Source: Candidatus Berkelbacteria bacterium (GTDB lineage Bacteria; Patescibacteriota; UBA1384; XYA2-FULL-43-10; CAINNR01). From it: a stretch of 61,050 nt of DNA. A program made the translations under genes and the position numbers. Shown here in pieces: positions 27,603-43,740 of this stretch (position 1 is its first letter; every line of letters begins with the position of its first letter). Where the stretch lies: positions 1 through 61,050 of the forward strand of contig JAPLVG010000023.1 of assembly GCA_026397235.1 (NCBI GenBank), written 5' to 3'. The notes under the pieces are model-generated. The model was not told the DNA's origin, ran no database searches, and saw only the letters and a program-made list of their open reading frames with translations.

Positions 27603-27612
27603 ATAGTCTCTC

Positions 27613-27650
27613 AAAAAAAACTGGCCGAACTAATTAAGCCAGTTTTTTTT
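27613..27650 (+). terminator. Strong hairpin with flanking A8/T8 runs after rplO
   Basis: AAAAAAAACTGGC (27613-27625) / GCCAGTTTTTTTT (27638-27650). Confidence 0.75.
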
Positions 27651-27721
27651 GTACCTTGTTATTGAGTTTAGCGCACAAAAAGCGTACACTTTAGGCATAA
27701 ACTTGTCGATGCAAGATAATT

Positions 27722-28114
27722 ATGACTGATGAAATATTGAGCAAAATTGCAATCTTCCAGAAAAAAGAAATTCGCCGAGTCATTTTCAAAAATGAATGGT
27801 GGTTTGTGGTTGAAGACGTTGTTTTGGCATTGATCAACTCAAATGATCCAAAACAGTATATACAGCGTATGAAACTACGAGATTCCGAGTTAAGAAAAGG
27901 GTGGGTACAAATTGTACAGACCCTCCCGGTAGATACTCTTGGCGGTAAGCAGAAAATGGTTTGCGCCACAGCTGAGGGTTTGTTTCGCATTATTCAGTCT
28001 ATATCCTCGCCCAAAGCAGAACCGTTCAAACGCTGGCTAGCCAAAGTTGGTTACAAGCCTTCTCTCCCTGTCATTGCGAGCCATTTGTTTTTGTGTGAAG
28101 GCGCGGCAATCTAA
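27722..28114 (+). pseudogene. Bro-N-domain (antirepressor/DinD-like) gene, C-terminally truncated by the GIY-YIG element
   Basis: IAIFQKKEIRRVIFKNEWWFVVEDVVLAL...GGKQKMVCATAEGLFRII...AEPFKRWLAKV resembles Bro-N; the last ~20 codons (KPSLPVIASHLFLCEGAAI*) read into the GTCATTGCGAG repeat. Confidence 0.6.
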
Positions 28115-28441
28115 TAAATGAAATTAAAACGATATTATGTCTATTTGATGGTGAATCCTGCAAACTCTGTAATCTATGCCGGAGTCACAAACAATTTAAT
28201 TCGACGTGTGTTTGAACACAAGTGTAAGTTTATTGAGGGATTTACCAAAAAATACAATACAACAAAAGTAGTATATTGGGAGTGTTTTGATGATGTGAAA
28301 TCAGCCATAAATCGCGAGAAACAAATTAAATCAGGTTCCAGGCAAAAGAAAATTGATTTGATAATAAAACATAATCCCAAATTTAATGATTTGTACGGGG
28401 ATCTTTTGTAAGATTGCTTCGTCGTTCCTTCTCGCAATGAC
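28070..28441 (+). mobile_element. GTCAT...ATGAC hairpin element carrying a GIY-YIG ORF in its apical loop (filled copy)
   Basis: Outer arms GTCATTGCGAG (28070-28080) / CTCGCAATGAC (28431-28441); inner arms GGCAATCT (~28106-28113) / AGATTGC (28411-28417). The ORF lies exactly between the inner arms; an empty copy is at 56452-56555. Confidence 0.7.
28118..28411 (+). CDS. Small GIY-YIG nuclease-family protein
   Basis: 97 aa; YYVYLMV...VIYAGVTNNLIRRVFEHK...REKQIK matches the GIY-(x10)-YIG, R, E pattern. Confidence 0.85.
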   Translation: MKLKRYYVYLMVNPANSVIYAGVTNNLIRRVFEHKCKFIEGFTKKYNTTKVVYWECFDDVKSAINREKQIKSGSRQKKIDLIIKHNPKFNDLYGDLL

Positions 28442-28443
28442 GG

Positions 28444-28566
28444 AACCACGCAAAGGCCGGTGGGAATATTGCCGGTGGGGCGAGAAAAAATCTGGAAAAA
28501 CGGCTAGGCAGATCTGTCATCTCAAAACAAAATTATTTACCAAAGAAGAATAAATCAATTGAATAA
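28444..28566 (+). pseudogene. Possible orphan C-terminal fragment of the disrupted Bro-N/DinD-like gene
   Basis: Frame gives NHAKAGGNIAGGARKNLEKRLGRSVISKQNYLPKKNKSIE*, which I recall as typical of the C-terminus of this family; no start codon. Confidence 0.3.
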
Positions 28567-28570
28567 TCTT

Positions 28571-29305
28571 ATGAAAAACATTTTTTTAAAATCAATTTTG
28601 GGTGTCTTACTGTTTGTAGCATTTGTCGTGCTGGCTTTAGTTGCAATCTCCGGCGACAAAAAAGCAAAAGCTGTCGATGTTTGTTGGCAAAAAAACAATG
28701 GGCGCTACTCTTTTGGTGACTCAAACAAGGACTACGAAACAAAGTCATTGTGCCAATCAAACTATGTCTTGTACATGGAAATCGTAAATGGCACTGGTCC
28801 TCAATGCGTATCTGATCTTACCCAAAATGGAACATTTTCTGGCAGAGGGCAGACGTTCAGCACCAAGGAACAATGCAGAGCCTCTTTGCTTGCAACTTAC
28901 AATATGTCGGAATCCCGACCAACCTCGACTTCAAATGCCCCAACCTGCAATTATTCAAATGAATCAGCAAGTTGGAGGAGTAATTTACAAACAAAAATTA
29001 CCGCTTTGTATGCAGAGCTTTTAAAAAGAACTACCAACTCAAATGATTTTGCATATTGGCAGTCGGCGATGCCTTTTCGCAGTTGTGGCCAAACAATTGA
29101 CGAAACAAGCATTCGAGCATTTATTCAGACATCCGAAGAGTACAAGAATCTTCAAGCCGCGAGTACAACTGTTCAACCAGCTATTACCAACCAAAGTACC
29201 GAAGTTCAACTTGTAACCAAAACCGAAGCTCCAAAAACTGGTTTTCTTAACTATATTAAATCTATTCCTTCTCGCATCGCCAACTTTTTTAAGAGATTAT
29301 TTTAA
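28571..29305 (+). CDS. Secreted/membrane-anchored Cys-repeat protein with DUF4214-like C-terminal segment
   Basis: ATG at 28571 (ORF track TTG at 28559); N-terminal hydrophobic segment; two Cys-bounded ~28-aa repeats; LYAELLKRTTNSNDFAYWQS...IRAFIQTSEEY resembles DUF4214. Confidence 0.55.
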   Translation: MKNIFLKSILGVLLFVAFVVLALVAISGDKKAKAVDVCWQKNNGRYSFGDSNKDYETKSLCQSNYVLYMEIVNGTGPQCVSDLTQNGTFSGRGQTFSTKEQCRASLLATYNMSESRPTSTSNAPTCNYSNESASWRSNLQTKITALYAELLKRTTNSNDFAYWQSAMPFRSCGQTIDETSIRAFIQTSEEYKNLQAASTTVQPAITNQSTEVQLVTKTEAPKTGFLNYIKSIPSRIANFFKRLF

Positions 29306-29341
29306 TAACTTATGAAAAATATTTTTCTAACATCAAATGTA

Positions 29342-29409
29342 ACAAAAACACGTGAATAGCACCAGAAAACAGTAATCTATTCACTACTTATTGACAAAAA
29401 CACGTGAAT
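29342..29409 (+). promoter_or_regulatory. Two identical 16-nt direct repeats 52 nt apart
   Basis: ACAAAAACACGTGAAT at 29342-29357 and 29394-29409 (contains the CACGTG palindrome). Confidence 0.6.
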
Positions 29410-29487
29410 GTAGGCATTTTGTTAAACCGAGTGTATTATCATTTTCACCTTCTGTGAGGGCTAAGGCACTCTAGTATGTGGCAATTA

Positions 29488-29556
29488 TGCATAGTTTCAT
29501 GATATTTTGCATAGTTTATATAAATACTTGCATAGTTTAGCAAATAATGCTAAGAT
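29488..29556 (+). promoter_or_regulatory. Three TGCATAGTTT direct repeats overlapping a putative promoter of the HTH-ATPase gene
   Basis: TGCATAGTTT at 29488, 29508, 29529 (20-21-nt period); TTGCAT (29528-29533), 17-nt spacer, TAAGAT (29551-29556). Confidence 0.6.
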
Positions 29557-29574
29557 ATTGTAAGAGGAAATTAA

Positions 29575-30294
29575 ATGGAAGAAAAATTATTAACAATTGC
29601 TGAGGCAGCCGAAATACTCGGCGTTTCAATTGACACGCTCCGTCGCTGGGATAGTAGTGGGAAATTAGTTCCGATTAAAAAAGATGGCGGCGTACATCGG
29701 TTTTACCGAGAAAAAGATCTTGAAATATTTTCAAGTGATATTGTTGAACTTGCTCATGATTGGGCGAGAGATGGTTCAGAATTGCCTTCTATTTTCTACT
29801 GCGGCAATAGTGCAGTTTTTCAAGCCAGATTGTCAAAACTAGAGCATATCTTAATGAATCAACCGGGTTTCGAGAGGTTATTTTCGGTTATTATTGCCAT
29901 TGCCGGCGAGATCGGAAATAATTCTTTTGATCACAATCTGGGAAAGTGGCCGGATATACCGGGTATCTTTTTTGGATATGATATTAATAAAAAGCAAATT
30001 GTTCTTGCTGATCGTGGACTTGGTATTTTGGAGACACTTCGTCAAGTACGACCCAGCCTAAAAAATCATACCGAAGCTTTGATGGTGGCTTTTACTGAGA
30101 TTCTGTCTGGTCGTTCTCCAGAAAAGCGCGGAAATGGCTTAAAGTTCGTTCGAGAAGTTACAACAACTCAGCCAATTGACCTGTTTTTTGAAAGTGGCGA
30201 CGGTGAAGTTCGCATCAAGGCCCCAGATAAGGAGTTTCGTCTGACGCGCGGCCAAGAAATACTTCGCGGTTGCTTCGTCATAATTCAATTTTAA
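29575..30294 (+). CDS. MerR/excisionase-type HTH fused to a GHKL (histidine-kinase-like) ATPase domain
   Basis: 239 aa; LTIAEAAEILGVSIDTLRRWDSSGKL (HTH); N-box EIGNNSFDHN, G1 DRGLGI, G2 GNGLKF. Confidence 0.8.
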   Translation: MEEKLLTIAEAAEILGVSIDTLRRWDSSGKLVPIKKDGGVHRFYREKDLEIFSSDIVELAHDWARDGSELPSIFYCGNSAVFQARLSKLEHILMNQPGFERLFSVIIAIAGEIGNNSFDHNLGKWPDIPGIFFGYDINKKQIVLADRGLGILETLRQVRPSLKNHTEALMVAFTEILSGRSPEKRGNGLKFVREVTTTQPIDLFFESGDGEVRIKAPDKEFRLTRGQEILRGCFVIIQF

Positions 30295-30328
30295 AATTAG
30301 TTATAAAATAATAACGAAGGACAAATCT

Positions 30329-30619
30329 ATGCGTATTGAATTAAATAAATTTGGCACAACGCTTATTTCGCGTCAAGCAGGGTCTGAGGCTTTTAAGGCT
30401 TTTCAGTCAACATTGCAAGACATGAAGCCGGGTGAAAATCTTGAAATTGATTTTTCCGGTGTTTTAACATTTTCTCCATCTTGGGGAGATGAATTTGTGA
30501 GTCCTTTGTTTGATCAACTTGGAGACAACTTGGTCTTGTTAGCGAGCGACAATATGTCAGTTCAAGCAACATTAAAGCTATTGCAGGAAATCAAAAAACA
30601 ATCTTTTGTTATTCACTGA
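30329..30619 (+). CDS. STAS-like (DUF4325-type) small protein
   Basis: 96 aa; LEIDFSGVLTFSPSWGDEFVSPL matches my recollection of the DUF4325 STAS-like core. Confidence 0.65.
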   Translation: MRIELNKFGTTLISRQAGSEAFKAFQSTLQDMKPGENLEIDFSGVLTFSPSWGDEFVSPLFDQLGDNLVLLASDNMSVQATLKLLQEIKKQSFVIH

Positions 30620-30822
30620 TAATGATAAATAATAGAAACTTTCCGCTCCACGAATTTTTAATGCGGCGCTTCGCCAATCAATTCCTGCTTTCCGCGAACG
30701 CGGTGTCTGGAGAATAGCCAGTAACTATAACAAGATACAATAGTTTCGCCGAAGGCGAACACAGGGCGTTAAAAGCTCTGCTTATAAAATGAAAATTACA
30801 AAATAATTAACGTGGAATAATT

Positions 30823-31362
30823 ATGAAAATTACTTACTTTGTTCATGGCACAACAACTGACAATGAAAAGCACATTTCTTCCGGTTGGAAAGATGTAGAG
30901 CTTTCTGACCTTGGAATTCAACAATCAAAAGACTTGAAAAGTCAGGTAGATGTTAAGAAGTTCGATGTAGTTTTCTGTTCCGATTTAAAACGAGCGGTTG
31001 ATTCGACTAAGCTAACCTTTGAAGGAGTTGTACCAATTAAAATCGATCCACGATTACGTGAATGTAATTATGGCGACTTTAATGCTAACCCATCAGAAAT
31101 AGTTGAGCCAATGCAGGAAGAGAATATTGAAAAACCATTTCCAAATGGCGAAAGTTATGAAGATGTTAAAAAACGCATTAGTGAATTTCTGGAAGACATC
31201 AAAAAAGAGTATGGTAACAAACACATAGCAATTGTTGCTCACAAGGCTTCACAGCTAGCGCTGGATGTTATCATTAAAGGTATGACTTGGGACGAAGCCT
31301 TTGCCACAGATTGGCGTAAAGTTGGGAAATGGCAACCCGGTTGGGAATACGAGGTGAAATGA
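30823..31362 (+). CDS. Histidine phosphatase (phosphoglycerate-mutase-like) family protein
   Basis: 179 aa; ITYFVHGTTTDNE (RHG motif with V in place of R), DLKRA, VAHKASQ. Confidence 0.8.
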   Translation: MKITYFVHGTTTDNEKHISSGWKDVELSDLGIQQSKDLKSQVDVKKFDVVFCSDLKRAVDSTKLTFEGVVPIKIDPRLRECNYGDFNANPSEIVEPMQEENIEKPFPNGESYEDVKKRISEFLEDIKKEYGNKHIAIVAHKASQLALDVIIKGMTWDEAFATDWRKVGKWQPGWEYEVK

Positions 31363-31790
31363 TGGAAATTGTAATTGTCGACAATCCAAACCAATTAGAC
31401 ATCTTGTCGGACAAGACCGCGAATTTTGGTGAATTAAACTTTAAATTTTCACCAAAGTATTTAGCTGAACTAAAATCGCTTGTAAATAAATCACTGCAGT
31501 ACATTGCAACTATCGATGGAAATTTTGCTGGATATTTGGCGGCAAAAGAATCCGATATTTGGCCAGATAGTTTTCAGATTGTTGAATTATTTGTCGACCC
31601 ATCAGCCCAAAGAAAAGGGGTGGCATCTTCGTTGCTAGGAAAATTATTCACCGATGCCCATTGTCAGCTTGTTGTCGAAACTGAAAAAGAAAATCTACCT
31701 GCGATAACACTGTATAAAAAGCATGGTTTTGAAGAAGTCGAAAATGAAAATTGGGATGACATAACCTTGGTGAGAAATGACAATAAATAA
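31359..31790 (+). CDS. GNAT-family N-acetyltransferase
   Basis: ATG at 31359 overlaps the upstream stop (ATGA); VDPSAQRKGVASSLLGKL (motif A), LYKKHGFEEV. Confidence 0.8.
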   Translation: MMEIVIVDNPNQLDILSDKTANFGELNFKFSPKYLAELKSLVNKSLQYIATIDGNFAGYLAAKESDIWPDSFQIVELFVDPSAQRKGVASSLLGKLFTDAHCQLVVETEKENLPAITLYKKHGFEEVENENWDDITLVRNDNK

Positions 31791-32178
31791 AGCCGGTGCA
31801 ATTGTTAGAAAAATAGAAAACGGCGAAGTATATATTTTGCTTTTGCATTTGATTAAACACGACTTTTGGTCGTTCCCAAAAGGGCATATTGAAGAAGGTG
31901 AATCCGCAGAAGACACTGCAAAGCGCGAAATTCTTGAGGAAACAGGGCTTGTAATTAATATCACGAAACCGCTCGGAATCGCGAAGTATAAAGATATTGA
32001 TGGCAATGAAGTTAACTTAAATCTTTTCTTGGCCGATATTGAAAGTGGTGAGTTAGTTGAAGAAGAAGGCCACGAGTTAGTTTGGCTAACAGTTGATGAA
32101 GCAACAGAAAAACTAACCTACCCCGAACTCCGCGAATTTCTTTCTGATAAAAAATACGAAATAATTAACCTGGAATAA
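31777..32178 (+). CDS. NUDIX hydrolase
   Basis: 133 aa; Nudix box GHIEEGESAEDTAKREILEETGL. Confidence 0.9.
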   Translation: MTINKAGAIVRKIENGEVYILLLHLIKHDFWSFPKGHIEEGESAEDTAKREILEETGLVINITKPLGIAKYKDIDGNEVNLNLFLADIESGELVEEEGHELVWLTVDEATEKLTYPELREFLSDKKYEIINLE

Positions 32179-32180
32179 TT

Positions 32181-33080
32181 ATGCCAATTTTTAAAATCAA
32201 ACAAAATGCAGTTAATCAGTTAATGCTTGATAAAAATTATTTTAACAATGAATTCGAACTTAGGGATTTTTTTGCCGCCAATCTTGAACAGTTGCTAGGA
32301 TTAAGATTTTTAGAATCAGAATACCCAACTATAGACGGAAGAATAGATACTTTAGCCATAGACGAAACAAACTCCCCAGTTATTATTGAATACAAATGGG
32401 GACAAGATAATGCCATTTTTGTGCAGGGCTTGTTCTATCTAGACTGGTTGAAGAAAAATAAAAGACATTTTGATTTATTAGTAGCTAAAAAACTTGGTGA
32501 AGACGTAACTGTTAATTGGGCTAGTCCTCGAGTTATATTAATTGCATAAGGCTTTGATAACAGGACTATTACTGCAGTTCAGCAAGTTGATAGTGTTGAA
32601 CTTATAAAATATTCGCCTTATGAACAAGAAATTATCTACCTGGAAAATGTTTATGTGCCAAATAAGTCTAACCGCATTAAACAAAGTAATGATACAGATA
32701 GTTCGACAACTGAGGGGGCTGAGTTAGAAGAAACACATGATATTAGCTATCACTTGACTCGTCATAATTCGAATGCTGTCATAACCAAAGAGTTTCATAT
32801 GCTTAGAGAAAAAATACAGAATCTCCCTGGAGTAGAAGAAATAGTGAATTTTAAGACCGGAATTACTTATAGAACGACGAAAAGTTTTGCTAGGTTTGAA
32901 TTTGGAAGGACATTCATGAACGTCTTGGTTCGAGAACCGAAGTATAATGATCCTACACACTTGGTTCGTGATATCACTTCGCATATGTGGGGGTACAAAG
33001 GTAAAATCAAAGTTACATCTTCTGAAAATACTGACGCTGTTTTTGATATAATCAAACAGTCGTATGAAGAAACCTTGTGA
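32181..33080 (+). pseudogene. PD-(D/E)xK nuclease-like + DUF5655-like protein interrupted by one in-frame TAA
   Basis: ORFs 32181-32549 and 32655-33080 are in the same frame, and the frame is open between them except TAA at 32547-32549; paralogue of 33192-34115 (IDTLAIDETNSPVIIEYK vs IDSVALDESTNSVVLIEYK). Confidence 0.6.
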
Positions 33081-33191
33081 TGCTAACAGCTAATTTTACT
33101 AAGGTTAAATAACTGTTTACAGAAAAAGAAAACTCTCGCAATCTCAAGAGCGAAGTGCTATACTTTAGGCGTAAAATTAAGTGAAATAATT

Positions 33192-34115
33192 ATGGCAATT
33201 TTTAAAATTAATGATCAAAAGCTTGAAGCGATTTCTGAAAAGAAAATTGATTTAGAGCGCGATATTCAGAAACTCACCGAGCAAAACCTTGAAAATGTTT
33301 TTGGATTAAAATTTGTATGTGGTGCAAGCAACCAAGAATTTTGTGTTCGCGCAAATGAACAAGATTTCTACATTGATTCTGTAGCCCTAGATGAATCGAC
33401 TAACTCTGTTGTTCTTATTGAATACAAAAAGGATCGCAGTTTTTCAGTTATTGACCAGGGTTTTGCTTATCTATCTGCGATGCTGAACAATAAAGCTGAA
33501 TTTGTTTTGGAAATAAATGAGCGGCTTAAAAAAAATCTATCAAAAAAAGATATCGATTGGGAGCAATCTAGAATTATTTTTATTTCAAACGAATTCACAA
33601 ATTATCAAAAGAACGCCATCAACTTTAAGGATCTGCCAATGTTTTTGTACGAAGTAAAAATATATGACAACCTTATTGATTACAATCCAATCAAACCCTT
33701 CAAAACCAGTGAATCAATTAACAAATTTATCAAAGATAAAAAAGTCAGGGAAGTAGTAAATGAAGTCAAAGTTTATTCGATTGAAGATCATTTATCGAAA
33801 TCATTACCTGAAATTGTCGAAATCTATAACACGCTTAGCCAAAAAATTCATTCACTTGATACCAGAATTTTAGAGAAACCAGTAAGGGGCTATATCGGTT
33901 TTAAAATTCGCTACCATAACTTCTGTTCTCTCGCGGTACAAAAAAATAAAATCGGGGTTTATTTACGCGCCCAGAAAATATCTGATGGAAATAAACTTCT
34001 TAAAAGGATACCAAGTCAGAGTTCTTTGTGGCGATGTGATATAACTTCGCTTGATCAAATTGATGAGGTGTTTTTACTTATCCAACAATCATATAATCAG
34101 GCACCAGATAAATAA
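33192..34115 (+). CDS. PD-(D/E)xK nuclease-like N-domain + DUF5655-like C-domain protein (intact paralogue)
   Basis: 307 aa; D...E-x-K signature in YIDSVALDESTNSVVLIEYK; C-terminal YIGFKIRYHNFCSLAV... Confidence 0.65.
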   Translation: MAIFKINDQKLEAISEKKIDLERDIQKLTEQNLENVFGLKFVCGASNQEFCVRANEQDFYIDSVALDESTNSVVLIEYKKDRSFSVIDQGFAYLSAMLNNKAEFVLEINERLKKNLSKKDIDWEQSRIIFISNEFTNYQKNAINFKDLPMFLYEVKIYDNLIDYNPIKPFKTSESINKFIKDKKVREVVNEVKVYSIEDHLSKSLPEIVEIYNTLSQKIHSLDTRILEKPVRGYIGFKIRYHNFCSLAVQKNKIGVYLRAQKISDGNKLLKRIPSQSSLWRCDITSLDQIDEVFLLIQQSYNQAPDK

Positions 34116-34166
34116 AACAATAATGTCCGAAGCATTTTCACGAGTAGTAATTTGATAAATAAATAT

Positions 34167-35303
34167 ATGGCTAGAATATCCTCAATCAAAAATCTTAAGA
34201 AAGCAAGAAAAGCAAAAAATGATGAGTTCTATACTCAGTACATTGATATTCAAAAAGAGATTGAAAAGTATCTTGAATATAATCCTGATACTTTTCGCGA
34301 GAAGGTAGTTTATTGTAACTGTGATGACCCGTTTGAAAGTAATTTCTTCCGTTATTTTGTGCTAAATTTTAATAAGCTTGGATTAAAACAGCTCATCACA
34401 ACGAGCTACAAACCATCGCCTGTTGCCAATACGCAGCTAGGATTATTTGGTGATGACAAAACACTTGCAAATGAAAAAGGACGTCCAAAAATAACTGCAA
34501 ACAAATTTATTATCAACGAAGTGCGCGACATAGACGAAGATGGTGAGTTCAATTTGGAAGATGTTGCCAAGCAACTGAAGGTAAATAAGCACAATGAATG
34601 GGCGCCACTGGATGATGATGGCGATTTTCGTAGTGATGAGTGTGTCGAACTACTCAAGCAATCTGATATAGTAGTAACCAACCCGCCATTCAGCTTGTTT
34701 CGTGAATATGTTAAGCAGCTTTTCGATTATAATAAAAAGTTTTTGATCATCGGCAATATTAATTGCCTAACTTATAGAGAAATATTCCAAAAAATTAAAG
34801 AAAATAAAGCATGGCTTGGTAATGGGATGGGGAGGTGGATTTCTGGGTTTATTGTTCCTGAATCCTACGAATTGTATGGGTCGGAAGCTCGAATAGATGA
34901 AAATGGAGATAGAATTGTCGCCACTAACAATTGTTTGTGGCTTACTAATCTTGATCACGGACGACGCCATCAACCGTTACCGCTTATGACAACGGCTGAA
35001 AATTTAAAATATAGCAAACATAAAGAAATCAAAGGGAAAGAGTCGTATGATAAATACGATAATTACAACGCAATAGAGATACCTTTTACCGATGCTATAC
35101 CAAGTGATTATAAAGGCGCAATGGGTGTGCCAGTTACTTTTCTTGATAAATATAATCCTGATCAGTTTGAAATTTTAGGAAATTCTAATGTGCGAGGAGA
35201 CCGAGAACATTTAATGAATAATATTAAAAGCGCATCGGGTTGCACCTATATAAACGGTAAGCCACAATTTGCTCGTATTTTAATAAAACATAGGGAAAAA
35301 TAA
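34167..35303 (+). CDS. DNA N6-adenine methyltransferase (EcoRI-methylase-like family, by recollection)
   Basis: KNDEFYTQY...VYCNCDDPFESNFFRYF N-terminal signature and catalytic VVTNPPFSLF (NPPF); ATG 34167 preferred over ORF-track TTG 34152. Confidence 0.8.
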   Translation: MARISSIKNLKKARKAKNDEFYTQYIDIQKEIEKYLEYNPDTFREKVVYCNCDDPFESNFFRYFVLNFNKLGLKQLITTSYKPSPVANTQLGLFGDDKTLANEKGRPKITANKFIINEVRDIDEDGEFNLEDVAKQLKVNKHNEWAPLDDDGDFRSDECVELLKQSDIVVTNPPFSLFREYVKQLFDYNKKFLIIGNINCLTYREIFQKIKENKAWLGNGMGRWISGFIVPESYELYGSEARIDENGDRIVATNNCLWLTNLDHGRRHQPLPLMTTAENLKYSKHKEIKGKESYDKYDNYNAIEIPFTDAIPSDYKGAMGVPVTFLDKYNPDQFEILGNSNVRGDREHLMNNIKSASGCTYINGKPQFARILIKHREK

Positions 35304-35304
35304 T

Positions 35305-36474
35305 ATGAAAACAATTTTAACAACTACCACAACCGTAAAAGAAATCTGCGATGGATTTGTCTATAACGAGCTTGAAGGCAAGGGATTATTTGGCTTGTCG
35401 GGAAAGCTGACCATTCAACCGGAATATCAACGAAACTATATTTATGCTTCGGATGGCGGAAAAAGAGAAGCAGCTGTCATCGCATCTGTTTTGAAAGAAT
35501 ATCCCATTGGTTTGATCTATTTTAACAAGGTTAGCGATGATAAATTTGAAGTTTTGGACGGTCAGCAACGTATTACGAGCCTTGGCCGATTTATCACGGA
35601 CAAATTTGCAATAATCGATCAAAATGGCATGCCTCAGAATTTTAGCGGCATGGCCAAAGATAAGCAAACCAAGATTTTGGAAACAAAACTAACTATTTAT
35701 GAATGCGGGGGCAAAGAAAGCGAAATAAAAGAGTGGTTCAAGACGATTAATATTGCCGGTGTCCCGCTTAATAACCAAGAGCTCTTGAACGCGGTTTATT
35801 CGGGACCATTTGTGACGCGAGCCAAAGAAGAGTTTAGCAACAGTCAGAATGCCAATATCCAAAAATGGAGCGCGTATGTTAGCGGTAGCGCAAATCGGCA
35901 AGAGTTTTTAGAGAGAGCGCTAGACTGGTCTAGTAAAGGTGAGATCGGTGAATATATGAGTAGCCATCGATTTGATGATAATATTACCGAGCTAAAGAGC
36001 TATTTCAATTTAGTAATTGATTGGGTTTCTAGCGTTTTTAGTGATGTTGAAAGCGAGATGCGAGGTTTGCCATGGGGCCATTTCTATGAACAATATCACA
36101 AAAATTCATACAACCCCGGGAATGTGTCTGACAAGGTCCATAAGTTTTATAGCGATCCTTATATAAAAAGTCGCAAAGGCATTTTCGAATTTATCCTCGG
36201 GGGAGAAGTTGACACAAAATTACTTGAGATTAGAGTGTTTGACGAGGCGACTAAAAGATTGGTCTATTCCAAACAGACAGAAGCTGCAAAAGCTAAAGGC
36301 GTATCAAATTGCTCGTACTGTGCAATCGGTCACGATGCTAATAGAGACAAAATCTGGAGTTTAGACGAAATGGATGCCGATCATGTCGAAGCTTGGAGCA
36401 AGGGCGGCTCAACAGATATGATAAATTGTGAAATGTTGTGCAAAACACACAACCGAGCAAAAGGTAATCGATAG
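35305..36474 (+). CDS. DUF262 (ParB/GmrSD-N-like) + C-terminal HNH nuclease protein
   Basis: 389 aa; IQPEYQRNY, LDGQQRITSLG (DUF262); CSYC...DADHVEAWSKGG...NCEMLCKTHNRAKGN (HNH); starts 1 nt after the methyltransferase stop. Confidence 0.85.
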   Translation: MKTILTTTTTVKEICDGFVYNELEGKGLFGLSGKLTIQPEYQRNYIYASDGGKREAAVIASVLKEYPIGLIYFNKVSDDKFEVLDGQQRITSLGRFITDKFAIIDQNGMPQNFSGMAKDKQTKILETKLTIYECGGKESEIKEWFKTINIAGVPLNNQELLNAVYSGPFVTRAKEEFSNSQNANIQKWSAYVSGSANRQEFLERALDWSSKGEIGEYMSSHRFDDNITELKSYFNLVIDWVSSVFSDVESEMRGLPWGHFYEQYHKNSYNPGNVSDKVHKFYSDPYIKSRKGIFEFILGGEVDTKLLEIRVFDEATKRLVYSKQTEAAKAKGVSNCSYCAIGHDANRDKIWSLDEMDADHVEAWSKGGSTDMINCEMLCKTHNRAKGNR

Positions 36475-36479
36475 CTCAC

Positions 36480-37175
36480 ATGGAATATCAGATTATTCTA
36501 AAACACAAGGATAAAACTTATCGTGTCTCAAAATTGGTAGCGGCGGGTGACGGTTCTCTGTACTGGTATTTTCCAAATTCTCAAAAATATTATGTTCGTG
36601 CTGTCAAAGTTGTCAAATGGAGACCTGGAAAATCTAAAATAAAATTGGAGGGGAGACACAGGTTTTGCTCCGATCCATATGTCAGCTTTCATCCCGGTAA
36701 AGGAATAATTCACGCGAAAGGTAAAAGCAAGCTCGGCCAAAGCATTAATCTTGTTGAGGATTCTGAGCAAATAAGCTTTGATAAATTGGCTTTAGCATTG
36801 TCTCACCAAGTTATATTCTCATTCGTCGTGCCTAGCAAGCTCAATGTATTAGATGAGTACAACAAAATAGTTTGTTTAGTATCTGATTTGGTATTTAAAT
36901 CTGACAAAGAAGAAATCGATACAAGTTTAAATTTTGAATTTTTTGTCCATAACTCTGGCGGAGTTGTTGATATTGATGACTTGAAAGCTCGTACTAATAG
37001 AAACATAATTGCCGTGAAAGAAATTCAGCTCAGAAATTGTTACTTTACTATAACCTGTGTGGTGAGTTCGATTAGGATTGTCAACTCAAAAGATTTGGTC
37101 TGTGAAATCCCAAGAGGGGCAAAAATTGAACCTGTGTTTTTTGCTCTTAGAAAAAACCCAAAAAATAATGATTGA
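36480..37175 (+). CDS. Hypothetical protein
   Basis: 231 aa, starts 5 nt after the DUF262-HNH stop; no family recognised. Confidence 0.55.
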   Translation: MEYQIILKHKDKTYRVSKLVAAGDGSLYWYFPNSQKYYVRAVKVVKWRPGKSKIKLEGRHRFCSDPYVSFHPGKGIIHAKGKSKLGQSINLVEDSEQISFDKLALALSHQVIFSFVVPSKLNVLDEYNKIVCLVSDLVFKSDKEEIDTSLNFEFFVHNSGGVVDIDDLKARTNRNIIAVKEIQLRNCYFTITCVVSSIRIVNSKDLVCEIPRGAKIEPVFFALRKNPKNND

Positions 37176-37244
37176 CAAAACCATAACGTTTAATAGAAGA
37201 TGAAGCTGTTATAAATTGCAGGATCTAAGATCAATATTTGCCAA

Positions 37245-38252
37245 ATGGACAAAACGCCTAAAAACCAACTAAGCATTTTGATACGTTTTAGTTTTTGTGA
37301 TAGTAACGCTCAAGCAATAGACCTTTATACCAGAAATGCCTGTGTGCTAGCTCAAGCTGAGATAATAACATTTATATTAGGCGGACTCTGCCCCGGTGAG
37401 CCATTTGAAATTTTGACTTTACCACCTCAAAGTGGCTCATTCAAAGACTTAACAGTTGTAAAATTGTTAAATAATAACACAGGCTGCGTTGCAGCATTAA
37501 GCGTTTTGCTTATGGCGCTCCTGTTCAGCAGCCAGTTGAAAGTTAATAATACAACTTCAGACTTGAATGTTCTGGAGATTGTTGAAAAATGCAAAAACTA
37601 TGGAGTGAGTGAGGAGCTCACTGAAAAAGTGAAAAATATATGCAGCTCTTACTACCCTAAAAAACAGAAAAACATTTTCTATGAATCTGTAATAGCTGAC
37701 GAAAGTGTGACGAGCATCAAGCCAACGATAACAGAAGACCACGAAACTTTTGAAAAAGAAATTAATAGAAGTGATTTTCGAGAATTTATTGAAGAAATAC
37801 CGAAAGAAAAAGAATACTTGAAAACGGATTTATTGGGTCATATTCAGTTATCGCAGCCATTTATTGAAAAGCAGCAACAATATGGCAGGGGTGTTGCCTG
37901 GAAAGGGATGTATTTTGGCGAGGATGTAGTAGATGATCGAGGTGAAATAATTATTGAGGATGGCGAGAACATATTTTTCTACATGCAAGATGATGAATAT
38001 AAGGATCAGATATTAAAGCAAGAGGTCTCGTTTACTAGCGGTGATAATATCGGAGTCATTTTTGATGTTAATAGATATTATGATTACATTGAAAGTAGAT
38101 ATGGAAAGCCAAGATTGTATGTAAAAAAAGTGACATCTCATAATGATAACCTAGTTGAGCATAAGAAAGAATTGGAGATTAAAAGACAAGTCGTAAAGAG
38201 AGAAAAGCAAAATAAAAATCAAAAGTCGCTATTTGAGAATATTGAAACATAG
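37245..38252 (+). CDS. Hypothetical protein (one hydrophobic segment, acidic C-terminal half)
   Basis: 335 aa; no family recognised. Confidence 0.55.
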   Translation: MDKTPKNQLSILIRFSFCDSNAQAIDLYTRNACVLAQAEIITFILGGLCPGEPFEILTLPPQSGSFKDLTVVKLLNNNTGCVAALSVLLMALLFSSQLKVNNTTSDLNVLEIVEKCKNYGVSEELTEKVKNICSSYYPKKQKNIFYESVIADESVTSIKPTITEDHETFEKEINRSDFREFIEEIPKEKEYLKTDLLGHIQLSQPFIEKQQQYGRGVAWKGMYFGEDVVDDRGEIIIEDGENIFFYMQDDEYKDQILKQEVSFTSGDNIGVIFDVNRYYDYIESRYGKPRLYVKKVTSHNDNLVEHKKELEIKRQVVKREKQNKNQKSLFENIET

Positions 38253-38500
38253 CGTTAATACGGCAACAAAATTCTTAATAAAGATAGGGATCCAGCGCCA
38301 GTTGTAAATAATTTGGACAATAATTATGCAAAAACTAATTCAAGAATTTTTGAGAGTTAGGGATTTGCCCTACAGAATTCCACTTTCGTACGAAGATATC
38401 GAACATTATCAAAAAATTATTGTCGTCCTAGTCGAAACCAATCTGATTATGAAAGAAATCGACGAGGTTGTCGTTTTGTAAATAATGGTTACAGTTCTAT

Positions 38501-38529
38501 TGACAACTATATTTACATATATTATACTC
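38501..38529 (+). promoter_or_regulatory. Consensus sigma70-like promoter for the DUF2188 gene / TA module
   Basis: TTGACA (38501-38506), 17-nt spacer, TATACT (38524-38529); AAAGGAG SD before ATG 38556. Confidence 0.65.
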
Positions 38530-38555
38530 AGGGTAATTAACAAAGGAGTGTAATT

Positions 38556-38789
38556 ATGTCCGGTAAACAAATCTGGGTTTCGCCGGCTGATGACGGCTGG
38601 CGCGTTCACAAACCAGGAACAGTGAAAGATTCTGCTCGTACTGATACTAAAGCAGAAGCACTAGAAATCGCTGAAAGGATTGCAAGGAATCAAAACTTAG
38701 ACACAAAGGTTCAGCGAGCCGATGGTAAATTGTCAGCAGAGGGGAATACATACCCTCGTTCGCGAGACAAGTTTCCGCCACGAGGTTAG
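38556..38789 (+). CDS. DUF2188-family small protein
   Basis: 77 aa; WVSPADDGWRVHKPG...TKAEALEIAERIARNQ...RADGKL pattern. Confidence 0.7.
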   Translation: MSGKQIWVSPADDGWRVHKPGTVKDSARTDTKAEALEIAERIARNQNLDTKVQRADGKLSAEGNTYPRSRDKFPPRG

Positions 38790-38829
38790 TCAGTGAAGTG
38801 AATAATATAAATTAGCAGGAGGGGCTATC

Positions 38830-39585
38830 ATGAATTATTTTAAGAAATTGTTATTGGAGAAAAAAATTTCGCACGAGAAGCTTGCGGATATTTTTGGTAT
38901 TTCTCGTCCGACAGCCGCTAAAATCGCAAACGGTGATAAAGAAATGACCATAACAGAGCTGAGAAGGTTGGCAGAGGTGCTTGGAATTTCTGTTGACGAA
39001 GTGCTGGGTGAGAAGACGTCCGAAATTGTTTTAGAGTGTCCAAAGGAGAAAGCCAAGCCAACAGAACGAATCAGTGTTCCAGCAGAAGATGCTGAAAAAT
39101 TTAAGAATGTTCTGCTTTACATTACTCAAAAAATTGGAGCTCTTCCTAATGTTGGTCAGACTGTTCTGTATAAAATTTTATATTTCTGCGACTTTGATTA
39201 TTATGAGAAATTTGAAGAGCAACTTACTGGTGCACGGTATATCAGAAATCATTATGGGCCGACTCCAGTTGCGTTTGCAAAAATCGTTAAAACTATGATA
39301 ACTGCTGGAGAAATTGAAGAAGTAAAAACCAAATATTTCAATAAGGAACAAACCAAATATATCCCTGTGATCGAGCCGAACTTATCTGTATTGTCAGGGC
39401 AAGAGCTTAAACACATTGATGAGGAAATTGAGAAATTGGGAGGAATGACTGCTACTGAATTGTCGAACTTGTCCCATAAAGATGTACCCTGGATCGTCAC
39501 AAAGGAAGGGGATGAAATTCCTTACGAAACTGCTTTTTACAGAACACCTGACACCTCGGTAAGGGATTATGATGATAGTTTATAG
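38830..39585 (+). CDS. XRE-HTH + Panacea (DUF4065) domain antitoxin-like protein
   Basis: 251 aa; HTH ISHEKLADIFGISRPTAAKIANG; LYKILYFCDFDYYEKFEEQLTGARYIRNHYGPTP resembles DUF4065/SocA. Confidence 0.75.
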   Translation: MNYFKKLLLEKKISHEKLADIFGISRPTAAKIANGDKEMTITELRRLAEVLGISVDEVLGEKTSEIVLECPKEKAKPTERISVPAEDAEKFKNVLLYITQKIGALPNVGQTVLYKILYFCDFDYYEKFEEQLTGARYIRNHYGPTPVAFAKIVKTMITAGEIEEVKTKYFNKEQTKYIPVIEPNLSVLSGQELKHIDEEIEKLGGMTATELSNLSHKDVPWIVTKEGDEIPYETAFYRTPDTSVRDYDDSL

Positions 39586-39952
39586 CAAGCATCCAAGATT
39601 CGAAAAGCAGTTGAAAAAACTTCTAAAGAAGTATAGAACCCTGGAAGACGATTTGTTGATTGCCAAAAAAGCTGTAATTGAGCTATCACATGTTAATAAA
39701 ATCGACAACAGATCAGTTGAATTAGTTCCAGGATTTGATCATCAAGAAATTCAAATTTTTAAGATTAAGAAATTTGCCTGTAAAGCACTCGTTGGCAAAG
39801 GTGTTAGGAGTGGAATCCGAATTGTTTATGCATATTTTCCCGAACAAAATCATGTTAAATATTTAGAAATCTATTACAAAGAGAAAGATAACACGGATAT
39901 GGATTATGATTTTGTCAAAAATTATGTAGCAGAAATTATGAAGAGAACATGA
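39569..39952 (+). CDS. RelE/ParE-superfamily-like toxin partner
   Basis: 127 aa; overlaps the upstream gene by 17 nt; GIRIVYAYFPEQNHVKYLEIYYKEKD resembles the RelE/ParE-fold C-terminal strands. Confidence 0.6.
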   Translation: MMIVYSKHPRFEKQLKKLLKKYRTLEDDLLIAKKAVIELSHVNKIDNRSVELVPGFDHQEIQIFKIKKFACKALVGKGVRSGIRIVYAYFPEQNHVKYLEIYYKEKDNTDMDYDFVKNYVAEIMKRT

Positions 39953-39997
39953 CCATGCAATTCGAGTCCATATTACAATAACTATTATATAGAAAAT

Positions 39998-40042
39998 ATG
40001 AGCGAATATTACAAAGCAAATCGTGATTCATTTATTAGATAA
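39998..40042 (+). pseudogene. 14-codon remnant of the 5' end of a PD-(D/E)xK (Cas4-like) gene
   Basis: MSEYYKANRDSFIR*; the first 8 codons match the intact gene at 43741 (MSEYYKANR). Confidence 0.5.
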
Positions 40043-40090
40043 TATTATGAAAGATTATAAGATTTGGACAGGTAGAGAAAGATTGATTTC

Positions 40091-40687
40091 TTGCAAACCA
40101 ACCAAAAAATAATAGCATTCAATTTTATGGAAAAGCTCTCCTGCAATCTTGATAATACTAACTGGGAGAATATTCGGGTTGGGGCTCGGAAGTATATAGC
40201 CATAATGCAGATGGTTAAGAATACGAATGTTCGAACAGACGAAAGTTTTCGTAGAGCGTTTAATGGATTTTATCGTATAAGGCAGAGATCAAAAGAGTTT
40301 TACGATTTCCTTTATGAATATCTGGAAAGAAATAAAGAAATTAATACTTCTTTCAAACAAACATTATATTCTTTCTATGAGAAGTTTCAGCGTCTTGAGC
40401 CTTCATTTTCGAGTAAGATCGTAGCGACAATCAATCCAAACTTTCCTGTTTGGGATTCGGAAGTTCTGGCTAGGTTTGGGAAGAGAACACTTGGACATAA
40501 TTTAAACAAGGATATTAGACTGAAGGAAATGGTTAAAATATACAGTGAAATATCTGATTGGTATGCCGAATTTTTAGAAACTGACCAAGCAAAAGCAATG
40601 ATTGGATTGTTTGACCAAAAGATCGGCAAGCTAGAAATTACCGACATTAAAAAAATTGATTTAATTCTCTGGCAAACTAGGTCATGA
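40091..40687 (+). CDS. Hypothetical protein (start uncertain: TTG 40091 or ATG 40127)
   Basis: 198 aa; no family recognised with confidence. Confidence 0.5.
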   Translation: MQTNQKIIAFNFMEKLSCNLDNTNWENIRVGARKYIAIMQMVKNTNVRTDESFRRAFNGFYRIRQRSKEFYDFLYEYLERNKEINTSFKQTLYSFYEKFQRLEPSFSSKIVATINPNFPVWDSEVLARFGKRTLGHNLNKDIRLKEMVKIYSEISDWYAEFLETDQAKAMIGLFDQKIGKLEITDIKKIDLILWQTRS

Positions 40688-40782
40688 ATTCTGAATTAAT
40701 CAAAAAGAAAAGAAATACTATGTATAAACTTTCACCATCAGACTTTGCTTACTTGTACAAAGATTGTAAGCTTTGCTATTAG
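40684..40782 (+). pseudogene. N-terminal fragment of a second Cas4-like/PD-(D/E)xK-family gene ending at an in-frame TAG
   Basis: MNSELIKKKRNTMYKLSPSDFAYLYKDCKLCY* ; the S..F......C..C(F/Y) pattern parallels ISRSKLENFMNCSRCFY of 43741-44514. Confidence 0.4.
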
Positions 40783-40820
40783 TTAAAAATTAAACATGAC
40801 ATCACCCGCCAAAGGATTCT

Positions 40821-40865
40821 ATTCCACTTCTATGCGGAGTTTACCCTGTGGGAAGTATAGTAGTG
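40821..40865. repeat. Left copy of a ~45-52-bp inverted repeat
   Basis: The reverse complement CACTACTATACTTCCCACAGGGTAAACTCCGCATAG... matches 42728-42763 at 33/36 positions. Confidence 0.85.
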
Positions 40866-40936
40866 AAATACTGTGTCGGAGACACAAAAAGCTGGTATGG
40901 GTGTTTATGTAAATATCAATATATGACTTATAACTT

Positions 40937-41671
40937 ATGAAACCACAATATGATCTAGAGAAAATTAAGCTTGGAATTGATGAAGGAACGTGGAAGCGCG
41001 CAGTTGCTTTGTACGAATCTAATGCGGTGGAAAACTTCCGGGTACAATTTGGTGATTTTTTCGCGAAAGTAATTGGCGGCGAACCATATAATGTTTTTGT
41101 TTCATCGAAAGTTTATGACGAGGGCAATTGTAATTGTTATCTTGGGCGAAGTGAAATTTTGTGCAAACACATGGTTGCAGTCGCTATTTACGCTGTTAAA
41201 GGTGGACGCAAATTAACCAAAGAGGAAAAGGAATTGAGCCATCAGGTTGTGTTTAGCGGATTAGTTGGTGAACTAACAGAATTAGAATTAACCAATGTTA
41301 AAACAAATATCACAGCGTCACTTAAATATATTAAGTCTTACCATGGTCCCTCTCGGAGTTGGTTTCAATATCAAAATTCACTTACCGAGGGCTGTAATCG
41401 CTTAGCAAAAATTGTTTCTGGATTGCCTATATGCCCGCACACTTCGAGCATTCTAGTTGACTTGTTATTGCGGGCTGACAAGAAATTAACAGCTAGCGGC
41501 ATAGATGATTCAGACGGAATAGTTGGGGCATTCATTGAGGCGGTAGTGTTGTTACTCATGGATTTTTCAAAGTTAGATAAGAATTGTATAAAAACATTTT
41601 CGAAGTTAGTCGGCAAGGAAACCTGTTTTGGCTGGGAGTCCCCACTTTTAGAAATATATGATTCTTTATAA
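40937..41671 (+). CDS. SWIM zinc-finger protein
   Basis: 244 aa; CNCYLGRSEILCKHMVAVAIYA (CxC...CxH SWIM signature). Confidence 0.75.
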   Translation: MKPQYDLEKIKLGIDEGTWKRAVALYESNAVENFRVQFGDFFAKVIGGEPYNVFVSSKVYDEGNCNCYLGRSEILCKHMVAVAIYAVKGGRKLTKEEKELSHQVVFSGLVGELTELELTNVKTNITASLKYIKSYHGPSRSWFQYQNSLTEGCNRLAKIVSGLPICPHTSSILVDLLLRADKKLTASGIDDSDGIVGAFIEAVVLLLMDFSKLDKNCIKTFSKLVGKETCFGWESPLLEIYDSL

Positions 41672-41690
41672 TGGTTGAGATTTGTAATAG

Positions 41691-42441
41691 ATGAAAAGAA
41701 AAAAAATAACACAGAAAGAGCGGCGCACGATTGTTGAAAGTGTTGTCGGTAATGTGCCATGGGAGCAATTTACCCCCGGAATTTATAATAATTGTGATCG
41801 TTGGTGTGAGCGGTGCAGCAAAACTGAGAAATGTTATTTATTTTTTGAAGAGAAAAAAGAAGAGAATCGACGAACAAAAAGAAAAAAAGCCAAGAGATAC
41901 CGCTGGATCACTTAAAAAAGTTGGCGAATCACTTGGGCAAGTAAAGGATTTGATTCAGAAAATTTGTGATGCTGAAGGCATTGATGTTTCCATGACGCCA
42001 GAAGAGGAAGCTGAATATGAAAGAAGAGAGAAATTAACCGATCCGCACAATGATCCGATCGCTATCAGAGCCAGTAGATTATCAAAGTCAATATATAAAT
42101 GGTTGGATTCTGTACCGTCTCTAGACATGGTGAAGTATCAAGAAGCCTACGACCAAGTTTCTTGGCATTGGTCGCTGATTGGAGTAAAAACTGCGATGGC
42201 AATCCATTGCCAAAAGGAAACAGAAATTGAAGAAGGAAGTTCAAGAAAATTTGCCTTGGATCAACAACAGAAGTACAGCTGGATGGCTTATCGCTCGACC
42301 CAGATTTGCAAAAAAGGTTTTGAATTAATGGATGGCTATGTAAAAGATTCCAGAATAAGGCCCATTATTGATGAGAGTCAGAAATTAATGGGTCTAATCG
42401 ATAAAAAATTGTTGGCAACTGATATAATAATAAAGCAATGA
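41691..42441 (+). pseudogene. Cys-rich/helical protein gene requiring a +1 frame change in an A-rich tract
   Basis: ORF 41691-41915 (CDRWCERCSKTEKC...) and ORF 41731-42441 (+1 frame) overlap; plausible coding sense switches frame between ~41845 and ~41912, where A6, A5 and A7 runs occur. Confidence 0.5.
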
Positions 42442-42555
42442 CAGCGAGAGAATTAATGAAAATTAAAGGGTTCGAATTTGACGGGTTTATACGCTAAGAA
42501 AGAGTTTTAATCTTACGGAATCCCATAACATTAAAAAACTAAACTAGGAAAAAAT

Positions 42556-42717: not shown

Positions 42718-42727
42718 AATGATACGC

Positions 42728-42779
42728 CACTACTGTACTACCCACAGGGTAAACTCCGTATAGTAATAATAGATGGAAT
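42728..42779. repeat. Right copy of the inverted repeat
   Basis: CACTACTGTACTACCCACAGGGTAAACTCCGTATAG...GGAAT; partner at 40821-40865. Confidence 0.85.
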
Positions 42780-43078: not shown

Positions 43079-43084
43079 AGTCTG

Positions 43085-43738: not shown

Positions 43739-43740
43739 AA

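Follow-up and report, generated by a model that had tools for sequence, protein, structure and literature searches.

A predicted Ssn-type GIY-YIG nuclease gene between two inverted hairpin repeats, with gene-less repeat pairs alongside, in a Candidatus Berkelbacteria genome

A 61,050-nt stretch (positions 1-61,050) of contig JAPLVG010000023.1 from the Candidatus Berkelbacteria assembly GCA_026397235.1 (hereafter the window, i.e. the whole stretch of DNA that was analyzed, numbered from its first letter on the forward strand) carries a gene for a 97-aa GIY-YIG nuclease, here denoted ssn, between two inverted hairpin repeats, or arms, at 28070-28441 (the filled copy), and two pairs of arms that hold no open reading frame (ORF), at 56452-56555 (the empty doublet) and 54214-54318 (the third doublet). 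We interpret the filled copy as an Ssn/SRM unit, i.e. a gene for a single-stranded DNA (ssDNA) nuclease bracketed by two inverted hairpin repeats of the type termed Ssn-related motifs (SRM; PMC11893778), and the gene-less doublets as the same unit without the gene; the rough probability that we assign to this reading is 0.75. The initial annotation of the window reported the ORF between paired arms at 28070-28441 and an ORF-less copy at 56452-56555, and both were confirmed. It further placed the ORF in the apical loop of one hairpin, which does not hold: the unit consists of two convergent, separate motifs that resemble repetitive extragenic palindromes (REP), each internally complementary and composed of a head (GTC), a stem and a tail (C), arranged head-out so that the tails face the gene.

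Protein family and repeat architecture

SsnA of Neisseria meningitidis is a 94-aa single-domain GIY-YIG protein (CDD cd10448) that binds the hairpin repeat NTS (CGTCATTCCCGCGMAVGCGGGAATCYRG); it binds ssDNA only and cleaves it a few nucleotides upstream of the motif, with neither double-stranded DNA (dsDNA) nor RNA serving as a substrate, and within NTS the GTC located 5' of the palindrome is most important for cleavage and the C just 3' of it for binding (PMC11893778). The window protein matches the Pfam GIY-YIG family (E = 1.1e-14, residues 6-78), contains no further domain and is 100% identical to a Candidatus Berkelbacteria database protein. Over 90 of its 97 residues, it is 40% identical to the product of an N. 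gonorrhoeae ORF that encodes 94 aa and is flanked by NTS (pairwise E = 1e-27; E = 5e-16 in a tblastn search of 7.3 Gb). We assumed this ORF, from its length and NTS flanks, to be the orthologue of N. meningitidis CAX49033.1; with it as the reference, the similarity lies within the family limits of PMC11893778 (blastp E < 1e-10, coverage of at least 75%). The residues Y9, Y20 and E67 align with Y6, Y17 and E64 that were mutated in that study, and among 25 homologues Y9 and E67 do not vary, whereas Y20 is conserved in 90% or more. An AlphaFold2 model (pLDDT 91.7) displays a compact GIY-YIG fold, the closest solved folds being UPF0213 BH0048, Slx1, the UvrC N-terminal domain and I-TevI; the PDB holds no Ssn structure. 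Neither NCBIfam nor PADLOC has a specific model or gave an informative match for the window protein, and 50,697 phage records contained no match to it. Literature searches by arm sequence returned unrelated primer matches only, and those combining GIY-YIG with COG2827, REPIN/RAYT or miniature inverted-repeat transposable elements (MITEs) yielded nothing direct.

Among Ssn homologues, 42% are flanked on both sides by SRM, and many gene-less repeat copies are found in genomes that carry ssn (PMC11893778). The window ssn is likewise flanked on both sides in inverted orientation (arms at 28070-28112 on the plus strand and 28411-28441 on the minus strand). Judged by sequence, the locus is a member of this already published kind, with a divergent class of motif.

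The architecture was analyzed in 80 loci encoding relatives of the ORF (82 homologous ORFs) from groups of the candidate phyla radiation (CPR), Cyanobacteria, Chloroflexi, Omnitrophota, Bacteroidota/Ignavibacteria, Nitrospirota and Proteobacteria. An arm was defined as GTC followed by a 5-nt stem and, further on, by the reverse-complement stem and C, and an ORF was considered flanked when a correctly oriented arm was present within 150 nt. By these definitions, 54 of the 82 ORFs have arms both upstream and downstream, and 76 have at least one. Upstream of most ORFs the repeat consists of (T/C)GTCATTGCGAG, a variable segment and CGAAGCAATCT, and downstream of most ORFs of (G)AGATTGC, a variable segment and CTCGCAATGAC; the ATTGC stem was found in 51 of 61 upstream and 57 of 69 downstream arms. 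The head-out orientation prevails on both sides (50 vs. 7 for the nearest upstream arm and 51 vs. 15 for the nearest downstream arm). The consensus of this ATTGC class is GTC-ATTGC-GAG-(0 to about 60 nt)-CGAA-GCAAT-CT, with arm lengths of 24-88 nt, and in roughly a third to half of the arms the variable insert between GAG and CGAA forms a clearly stable inner hairpin.

When the two arms of a unit differ, the differences are compensated within each arm. Thus, in L080 the stems are ATTCC…GGAAT and ATGCC…GGCAT, each internally complementary, and in L078 they are ATTCCGG…CCGGAAT and ATGCCGG…CCGGCAT, with intra-arm complementarity retained; L034, L062 and L065 follow the same rule. Such compensation implies that the conserved structure is a hairpin in each arm rather than a long arm-to-arm hairpin. 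The exact NTS core flanks two homologues (L080 and L062) that are 55-61% identical to the window protein. The association of protein clade with arm class gives a weak signal, in a sample that consists mostly of relatives of the ATTGC class (60.6% identity within a class vs. 55.8% between classes).

Several further features of the arms were observed. Many short arms of the ATTGC class (L017, L028, L050 and other loci) contain GCGAAGC. This heptamer is a DNA mini-hairpin of unusual stability, and it may be the reason why arms that lack a long inner stem can fold as ssDNA. Predicted database proteins that run into arms end in characteristic tails (CHCELAKQS, VIASHRELPRRGNL, VIARSAATKQS, SLRERSDEAI and RLPRPDKSGLAM; P0002, P0010, P0030, P0062, P0107 and P0115), and such peptide tails are translation artefacts of the repeat. 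A close relative of the filled copy, with an Ssn that is 78% identical, lies outside any Bro-N gene (L081, 2943-3290); the sole in-frame ATG that retains the first catalytic Tyr sits within the variable part of its left arm. The database gene call of this locus (87 aa) starts too late, and several other 87-aa entries may share the problem.

In the window, the left arm of the filled copy (28070-28112) reads GTCATTGCGAGCCATTTGTTTTTGTGTGAAGGCGCGGCAATCT; the empty doublet has a left arm of this subtype too, and so does L082 in its arms. The right arm, on the plus strand, reads AGATTGCTTCGTCGTTCCTTCTCGCAATGAC, running from AGATTGC to CTCGCAATGAC and ending at 28441; the final A of the ssn stop codon, at 28411, is the first base of AGATTGC (28411-28417), so that the overlap of stop codon and arm described in the initial annotation is correct. 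Its proposed similarity between filled and empty copies also held up in an alignment, with a mean column identity of 83% for the left arms; the right arms have TTCGTCGTTCCT..TCGCAATGAC in common, and that of the empty doublet contains 23 additional bases between AGATTGC and TTCG relative to the filled copy. With at most one mismatch allowed, the 11-mer GTCATTGCGAG occurs within the window at these four arm positions only. Both copies display the same asymmetric pairing, GAGCCAT…GGCRCGGCAAT in the left arm combined with GAR.AGGAACGACGAAG in the right arm, which shows common descent, as chance would not produce it. As ssDNA, the left arm of the empty doublet folds well into a hairpin of its own (-10.6 kcal/mol, z = -3.7).

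The arms of the third doublet, which are of an NTS-like class, do not match each other, yet each folds well alone (-20.5 kcal/mol, z = -4.4 for the left and -8.1 kcal/mol, z = -3.4 for the right arm, both as ssDNA). This doublet consists of GTCATTCCCGCC…GGCGGGAATCT, followed by ACTATTAGTG and then GATCCCCGAATAGGTCGGGGATGAC, and is located between a minus-strand DEAD-box helicase gene and a putative methyltransferase gene. The window contains one ssn gene, and within it no second ssn gene cognate to the third doublet was found. In all six arms of the window, GTC lies immediately 5' of the stem and C immediately 3'. A scan for promoters and terminators around the filled copy revealed nothing above the shuffled expectation.

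Filled and empty units and their insertion sites

A tabulation of filled and empty copies across the relatives, of the kind called for in the initial annotation, yielded two clear classes. Among tail-to-tail arm pairs in the 80 loci, 41 have gaps of 0-50 nt and are empty, and 40 have gaps of 280-400 nt and hold ssn, with only 2 cases of intermediate gaps (100-280 nt). The position of the ORF relative to the arms, checked across copies, is always exactly between the two tails, and in about 24 of 69 cases the stop codon lies at -1 to +2 nt from the right tail. Arms are dense around ssn genes (327 per 307 kb, vs. 3 per 180 kb in control CPR ribosomal-operon loci), and 58 of the 327 arms have an identical copy inside the same locus of about 4 kb. 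We regard both doublets without an ORF (56452-56555 and 54214-54318) as Ssn/SRM units minus the gene, which stand to the filled copy much as REPINs stand to RAYT genes or MITEs to their parent insertion sequences.

The empty doublet lies between rpmJ (56294-56440) and rpsM (ATG at 56584), and was compared with 80 metagenomic loci that encode relatives of S13. In 12 of the 13 closest loci (S13 68-90% identical), the rpmJ-rpsM spacer is 0-3 nt long, vs. 143 nt in the window; the remaining locus (70% identity) has no locatable rpmJ end. The additional DNA consists of TAACCGCTCA, the 104-nt doublet, AAGGCGGAC and, repeated, the final 19 nt of the rpmJ region. Compared with the closest relatives, the empty doublet thus is an insertion, and its absence from relatives with S13 identity of up to 90% indicates that at least one insertion was evolutionarily recent. 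The 19-nt duplication may be a by-product of the insertion or may have been kept by selection for the rpsM ribosome-binding site. The two forms of the unit, taken with this insertion, fit the suggestion of the initial annotation that a hairpin element spreads with or without its nuclease gene. Apart from the doublet, the L36 protein encoded by rpmJ (56294-56440) has 48 aa, vs. the usual length of about 38, and the inserted segment is common to the closest relatives (L086-L089).

The filled copy lies in a Bro-N gene, and the initial annotation held that it had truncated this gene. The gene is indeed interrupted; it is split, with both halves remaining and the C-terminal remnant in another frame. 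The ORF of the N-terminal part continues through the left arm to the TAA at 28112-28114, and the remnant located 3' of the filled copy contains …AKAGGNIAGGARKNLEKRLGRSVISKQNYL. The Bro-N family comprises one long form of 266 aa and several short forms; in a 149-aa homologue that is 73% identical (P0121), …VGYE is joined to LKSDAKAGG… uninterrupted. The order Bro-N N-terminal part, arm, ssn, arm and C-terminal remnant recurs in Saccharibacteria (L001) and Omnitrophota (L082), i.e. in three phyla in all, and two further database proteins (P0159 and P0205) end in arm-encoded tails. When exactly GTC…GAC (387 nt) is taken out of L082, the Bro-N frame is regained; for the window (372 nt) and L001 (399 nt), this is so only when a few flanking bases are taken out as well. 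Junctions comparable to the pyrimidine-rich 12-mer that precedes the GTC head in the window are present in L001 (AGTCTTTTTCCC) and L082 (TTATTTCTTT), and, as inferred from this resemblance, the junction at 28058-28069 may be part of the inserted unit.

Among the three carriers, Ssn identity is 72-75%, vs. 53-64% for the N-terminal part of Bro-N; given that Ssn evolves slowly in general, this gap is compatible with both repeated site-specific insertion and co-inheritance. The similarity of the junctions across the carriers favors a single old event, and we read the arrangement as one old insertion into Bro-N that was carried with a horizontally spreading gene. The element is not necessarily the cause of the loss of the central region of Bro-N. 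Short-form Bro-N/DinD-like proteins of CPR bacteria each lack a different central stretch (P0121, P0122, P0125, P0135, P0146, P0149, P0153, P0198 and P0225). The junctions of several short forms are within a few codons of the position of the ssn element in the window, and the short forms may be excision footprints or independent deletions.

Table 1 Arms, spacers, flanks and genes of the three elements in the window
Feature	Position	Strand	Remarks
Bro-N N-terminal part, 112 codons	27722-28057	+	Pfam Bro-N E = 9.8e-16; aligns with the N-terminus of the 149-aa and 266-aa homologues
Pyrimidine-rich 12-nt junction, CCTTCTCTCCCT	28058-28069	+	Between Bro-N sequence and GTC head
Left SRM-like arm, filled copy	28070-28112	+	GTC head, ATTGC…GCAAT stem, CT tail; GTCATTGCGAG…GGCAATCT
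Spacer AATAA, filled copy	28113-28117		Between left arm and ssn ATG
ssn gene, 97-aa single-domain GIY-YIG nuclease	28118-28411	+	Pfam GIY-YIG; TAA at 28409-28411
Right SRM-like arm, filled copy	28411-28441	-	Minus-strand reading GTCATTGCGAGAAGGAACGACGAAGCAATCT; tail overlaps ssn stop
Bro-N C-terminal remnant, NHAKAGGNIAGGARKNLEKRLGRSVISKQNYLPKKNKSIE then stop	28444-28563	+	Other frame than the N-terminal part; aligns with the C-termini of Bro-N homologues
Left arm, third ORF-less doublet, NTS-like class	54214-54283	+	GTCATTCCCGCC…GGCGGGAATCT, long inner hairpin
Right arm, third ORF-less doublet	54294-54318	-	GTCATCCCCGACCTATTCGGGGATC; sole window match to the published SRM pattern
Left direct-repeat copy, 19 nt, AAACAAAGACAAGGATAAT	56423-56441	+	rpmJ 3' end, stop codon, rpsM ribosome-binding site
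Flank, 10 nt, TAACCGCTCA	56442-56451	+	Between direct repeat and GTC head; not in relatives
Left arm, empty doublet	56452-56493	+	Starts GTCATTGCGAGCCAT, ends GGCAATCT
Spacer TAAAAAT, 7 nt, empty doublet	56494-56500	.	Between the two tails; position of the ORF in the filled copy
Right arm, empty doublet	56501-56555	-	AGATTGCC…TTCGTCGTTCCTCTTCGCAATGAC
Flank, 9 nt, AAGGCGGAC	56556-56564	+	Not in relatives
Right direct-repeat copy, AAACAATAACAAGGATAAT	56565-56583	+	17 of 19 identical; immediately 5' of rpsM ATG (56584)

The ribosomal-protein operon is broken twice in the window. Between rplO and secY (27603-45888), about 18 kb of accessory or defence-type genes are present: Bro-N::ssn, a MerR-type helix-turn-helix (HTH) protein, a histidine phosphatase, GNAT, a NUDIX protein, a NucS-like protein, DUF5655, an EcoRI-like adenine methylase, GmrSD/HNH, an HTH protein with a SocA/Panacea antitoxin, Fic, a PD-(D/E)XK nuclease and a nucleoside hydrolase. 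The second break, of about 7 kb between map and infA (48692-55936), contains an ankyrin-repeat protein gene, a DEAD-box helicase gene on the opposite strand and several ORFs without a Pfam match.

Proposed working and alternative explanations

If the window enzyme acts in the same way as the characterized members, it would bind an arm folded as a hairpin when the DNA becomes single-stranded during replication, repair or uptake, and would nick it upstream of the GTC head, a few nucleotides away. As the arms are head-out, such nicks would mark both outer ends of the unit, one per strand; the 3'-OH that each would leave in the flanking DNA could serve as a primer for displacement synthesis through the unit. 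The nicks would permit the unit to be copied or mobilized in trans, whether or not it carries the gene. The filled and empty classes and the insertion between rpmJ and rpsM support the mobility of the unit; that this enzyme cuts arms of the ATTGC class, and the route from nick to new insertion, we infer by analogy with the characterized members.

A stronger claim, which we consider tentative and somewhat less probable than its negation, is that Ssn/SRM units are true transposable elements driven by a GIY-YIG ssDNA nuclease, with the ORF-less doublets as non-autonomous copies, and that they insert through single-stranded intermediates, leaving variable target duplications or none. If so, they would constitute a class of prokaryotic transposons without an HUH, DDE or serine/tyrosine recombinase; the window would hold one autonomous and two non-autonomous copies, including a datable rpmJ-rpsM insertion with a 19-nt duplication and an insertion into a Bro-N gene, and the uninterrupted short-form relatives of that gene might be excision footprints.

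Several observations weigh against the interpretation of the locus as an Ssn/SRM unit, or against its mobility. First, the published SRM pattern, HGTCWYN(0-2)YYVSBRHN(0-5)WNVSBRGN(0-2)RNCYNB, matches none of the four ATTGC-class arms of the window; it has any match in only 4 of the 80 homologue loci, and in the window it matches 54291-54319 alone. Given that the GTC head and the C that follows the stem are present, the ATTGC arms appear to be a divergent class of motif and not a missing motif. Second, three of these four arms fold no better than shuffled sequence as isolated ssDNA, so that they are, possibly, partly decayed, or recognized mainly by sequence. Third, the flanks of 43 isolated elements resemble mismatched controls, save for a slight surplus of longer repeats (at least 8 nt shared in 5 of 43, vs. 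2.7% of controls), which argues against a fixed target-site duplication as a property of the family. Fourth, the presence of the split gene in Saccharibacteria and Omnitrophota indicates that the Bro-N::ssn insertion is old and inherited and not fresh in this genome. Fifth, the heads of the gonococcal NTS face the gene, in the opposite orientation, so that the logic of border nicks does not transfer directly. Finally, restriction of incoming ssDNA in transformation, and not transposition, is the sole demonstrated role of an Ssn (PMC11893778).

Three alternative explanations were weighed, and all of them rank below the Ssn/SRM unit. The one that fares best, although we consider it unlikely, is that of a domesticated host system with no current mobility, in which the motifs mark the chromosome, incoming ssDNA is restricted or trimmed in transformation or repair, and the doublets are old and fixed. 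This is the role that has been demonstrated experimentally, in that SsnA lowers the integration of NTS-bearing DNA in natural transformation, whereas mobility was raised there as an idea (PMC11893778); the single ssn gene of the window, the ancient Bro-N::ssn arrangement common to three phyla and the partial degeneracy of the window arms are also in line with it. The rpmJ-rpsM doublet, being absent from relatives with up to 90% S13 identity, speaks against fixed doublets, as do the arms with identical copies nearby. Moreover, domestication is compatible with mobility, and both could hold, as proposed for the RAYT/REPIN systems.

Homing, proposed in the initial annotation as invasion of the hairpin loop, would involve a selfish nuclease gene that invades existing empty doublets, the enzyme cutting the spacer and repair copying the gene in. 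We found nothing in support of entry into a hairpin loop and regard homing in general as highly unlikely. The exact placing of the ORF between the tails with the stop codon often abutting or overlapping the right tail, the strictly bimodal gaps and the shared arm pair of the filled and empty copies would all be expected under homing. However, the characterized members neither bind nor cut dsDNA, and they cut ssDNA 5' of the GTC head, away from the tail and spacer (PMC11893778); the window protein is a bare 97-aa catalytic domain without the extra DNA-binding domain of GIY-YIG homing enzymes. Empty doublets have short spacers that lack sequence similarity to one another, and thus no conserved homing site, and the start codon that lies inside the left arm of L081 indicates that arm and gene are not separable modules.

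The third explanation, that the paired arms work at the RNA level, as a hairpin that terminates or attenuates transcription or stabilizes the mRNA, and that the association with the ORF is secondary, seems barely tenable: although the empty doublet lies inside the rpmJ-rpsM transcription unit and would fold strongly as RNA (-43.2 kcal/mol, z = -6.4), no U-tract follows the doublet and no T-run follows the arms, an Rfam search with all three window elements gave no relevant match at the gathering threshold or at E <= 1, SsnA of N. meningitidis does not interact with RNA (PMC11893778), and the link with a nuclease gene across phyla and the orientation rules would be left unexplained.

Relation to known systems

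The Ssn family was described in 2025 by Chenal et al. (Nat Commun, PMC11893778), who noted that NTS-ssnA-NTS is built like an insertion sequence and drew a comparison with RAYT/REP; the window adds comparative evidence on their idea of a present or former mobile element. What is new here is an arm class beyond the published pattern, the head-out orientation, the comparison with an empty site that shows insertion, and the split of Bro-N that recurs across phyla. A gene-less doublet was inserted at a tightly coupled junction of ribosomal-protein genes, the filled/empty dichotomy is strict over many phyla, and with head-out arms the expected nicks would fall at the borders of the unit. The arm class GTCATTGCGAG…CGAAGCAATCT flanks most of the 82 ORFs, with CPR, Cyanobacteria, Chloroflexi, Omnitrophota and Bacteroidota among the phyla, and explains many spurious protein tails in metagenomes ('VIAS…', 'CHCE…AKQS' and '…GLAMT'). 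For enzyme developers, the ATTGC class points to Ssn enzymes that probably have a different recognition sequence.

With the Ssn and NTS/SRM systems (PMC11893778), the window locus shares a GIY-YIG protein that has one domain, about 95 aa and the conserved catalytic residues, and inverted flanking hairpin repeats whose head is (C/T)GTC and whose stem is followed by C. It differs in the ATTGC/GCAAT stem, the conserved GAG…CGAA internal loop and the variable inserted hairpin, in the CPR host and in the outward direction of the heads, whereas in N. gonorrhoeae the heads point toward the gene. Thus, in the gonococcal record NZ_CP119140.1 (L166), NTS are found at 281-306, 700-727 and 775-802 of the locus, and their CGTC heads face the 94-aa ssnA-like ORF. 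This record is labelled a plasmid and, at 2.17 Mb, is evidently a chromosome.

REPs tagged with CGTC or TGTC, including Neisseria dRS3 and Rickettsia RPE-4 and RPE-6, occur mostly as inverted dimers, without an evident dedicated transposase (Di Nocera et al. 2013, PMC3733652). Like the arms analyzed here, they are short stem-loops with an unpaired CGTC/TGTC tag, A-T pairs that open the stem and a short tail, and they form inverted dimers, sometimes inside genes; their stems are 8-9 bp and their loops 4-5 nt long, whereas arms of the ATTGC class combine an outer stem of 5 bp with a long interior that varies.

The REPIN/RAYT and IS200/IS605 systems likewise combine a nuclease gene between inverted hairpin repeats with abundant gene-less doublets, and recognition of ssDNA hairpins with cleavage beside a conserved tag; here, the nuclease is of the GIY-YIG type and not an HUH/Y1 transposase, and the tag is GTC instead of GTAG. 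The two end hairpins of IS200/IS605 share one strand, unlike the inverted arms of the window. To our knowledge, no covalent intermediate or strand-transfer chemistry is associated with a GIY-YIG enzyme of the Ssn type, unlike HUH/Y1 enzymes.

The GIY-YIG homing endonucleases, such as I-TevI and the phage Seg proteins, have in common with the window locus the catalytic fold, a selfish-looking gene and the pattern of filled and empty sites. The window locus lacks a DNA-binding domain, an intron and a phage context and resides in the chromosome of a CPR bacterium, and members of the Ssn family do not cut dsDNA. Bacterial MITEs and their parent insertion sequences resemble the window elements in having terminal inverted repeats and a gene-less derivative beside the gene-carrying form, and in inserting into intergenic spacers as well as genes; in contrast to them, the elements described here combine this layout with a GIY-YIG nuclease gene in place of a DDE transposase and apparently with no fixed-length target-site duplication.

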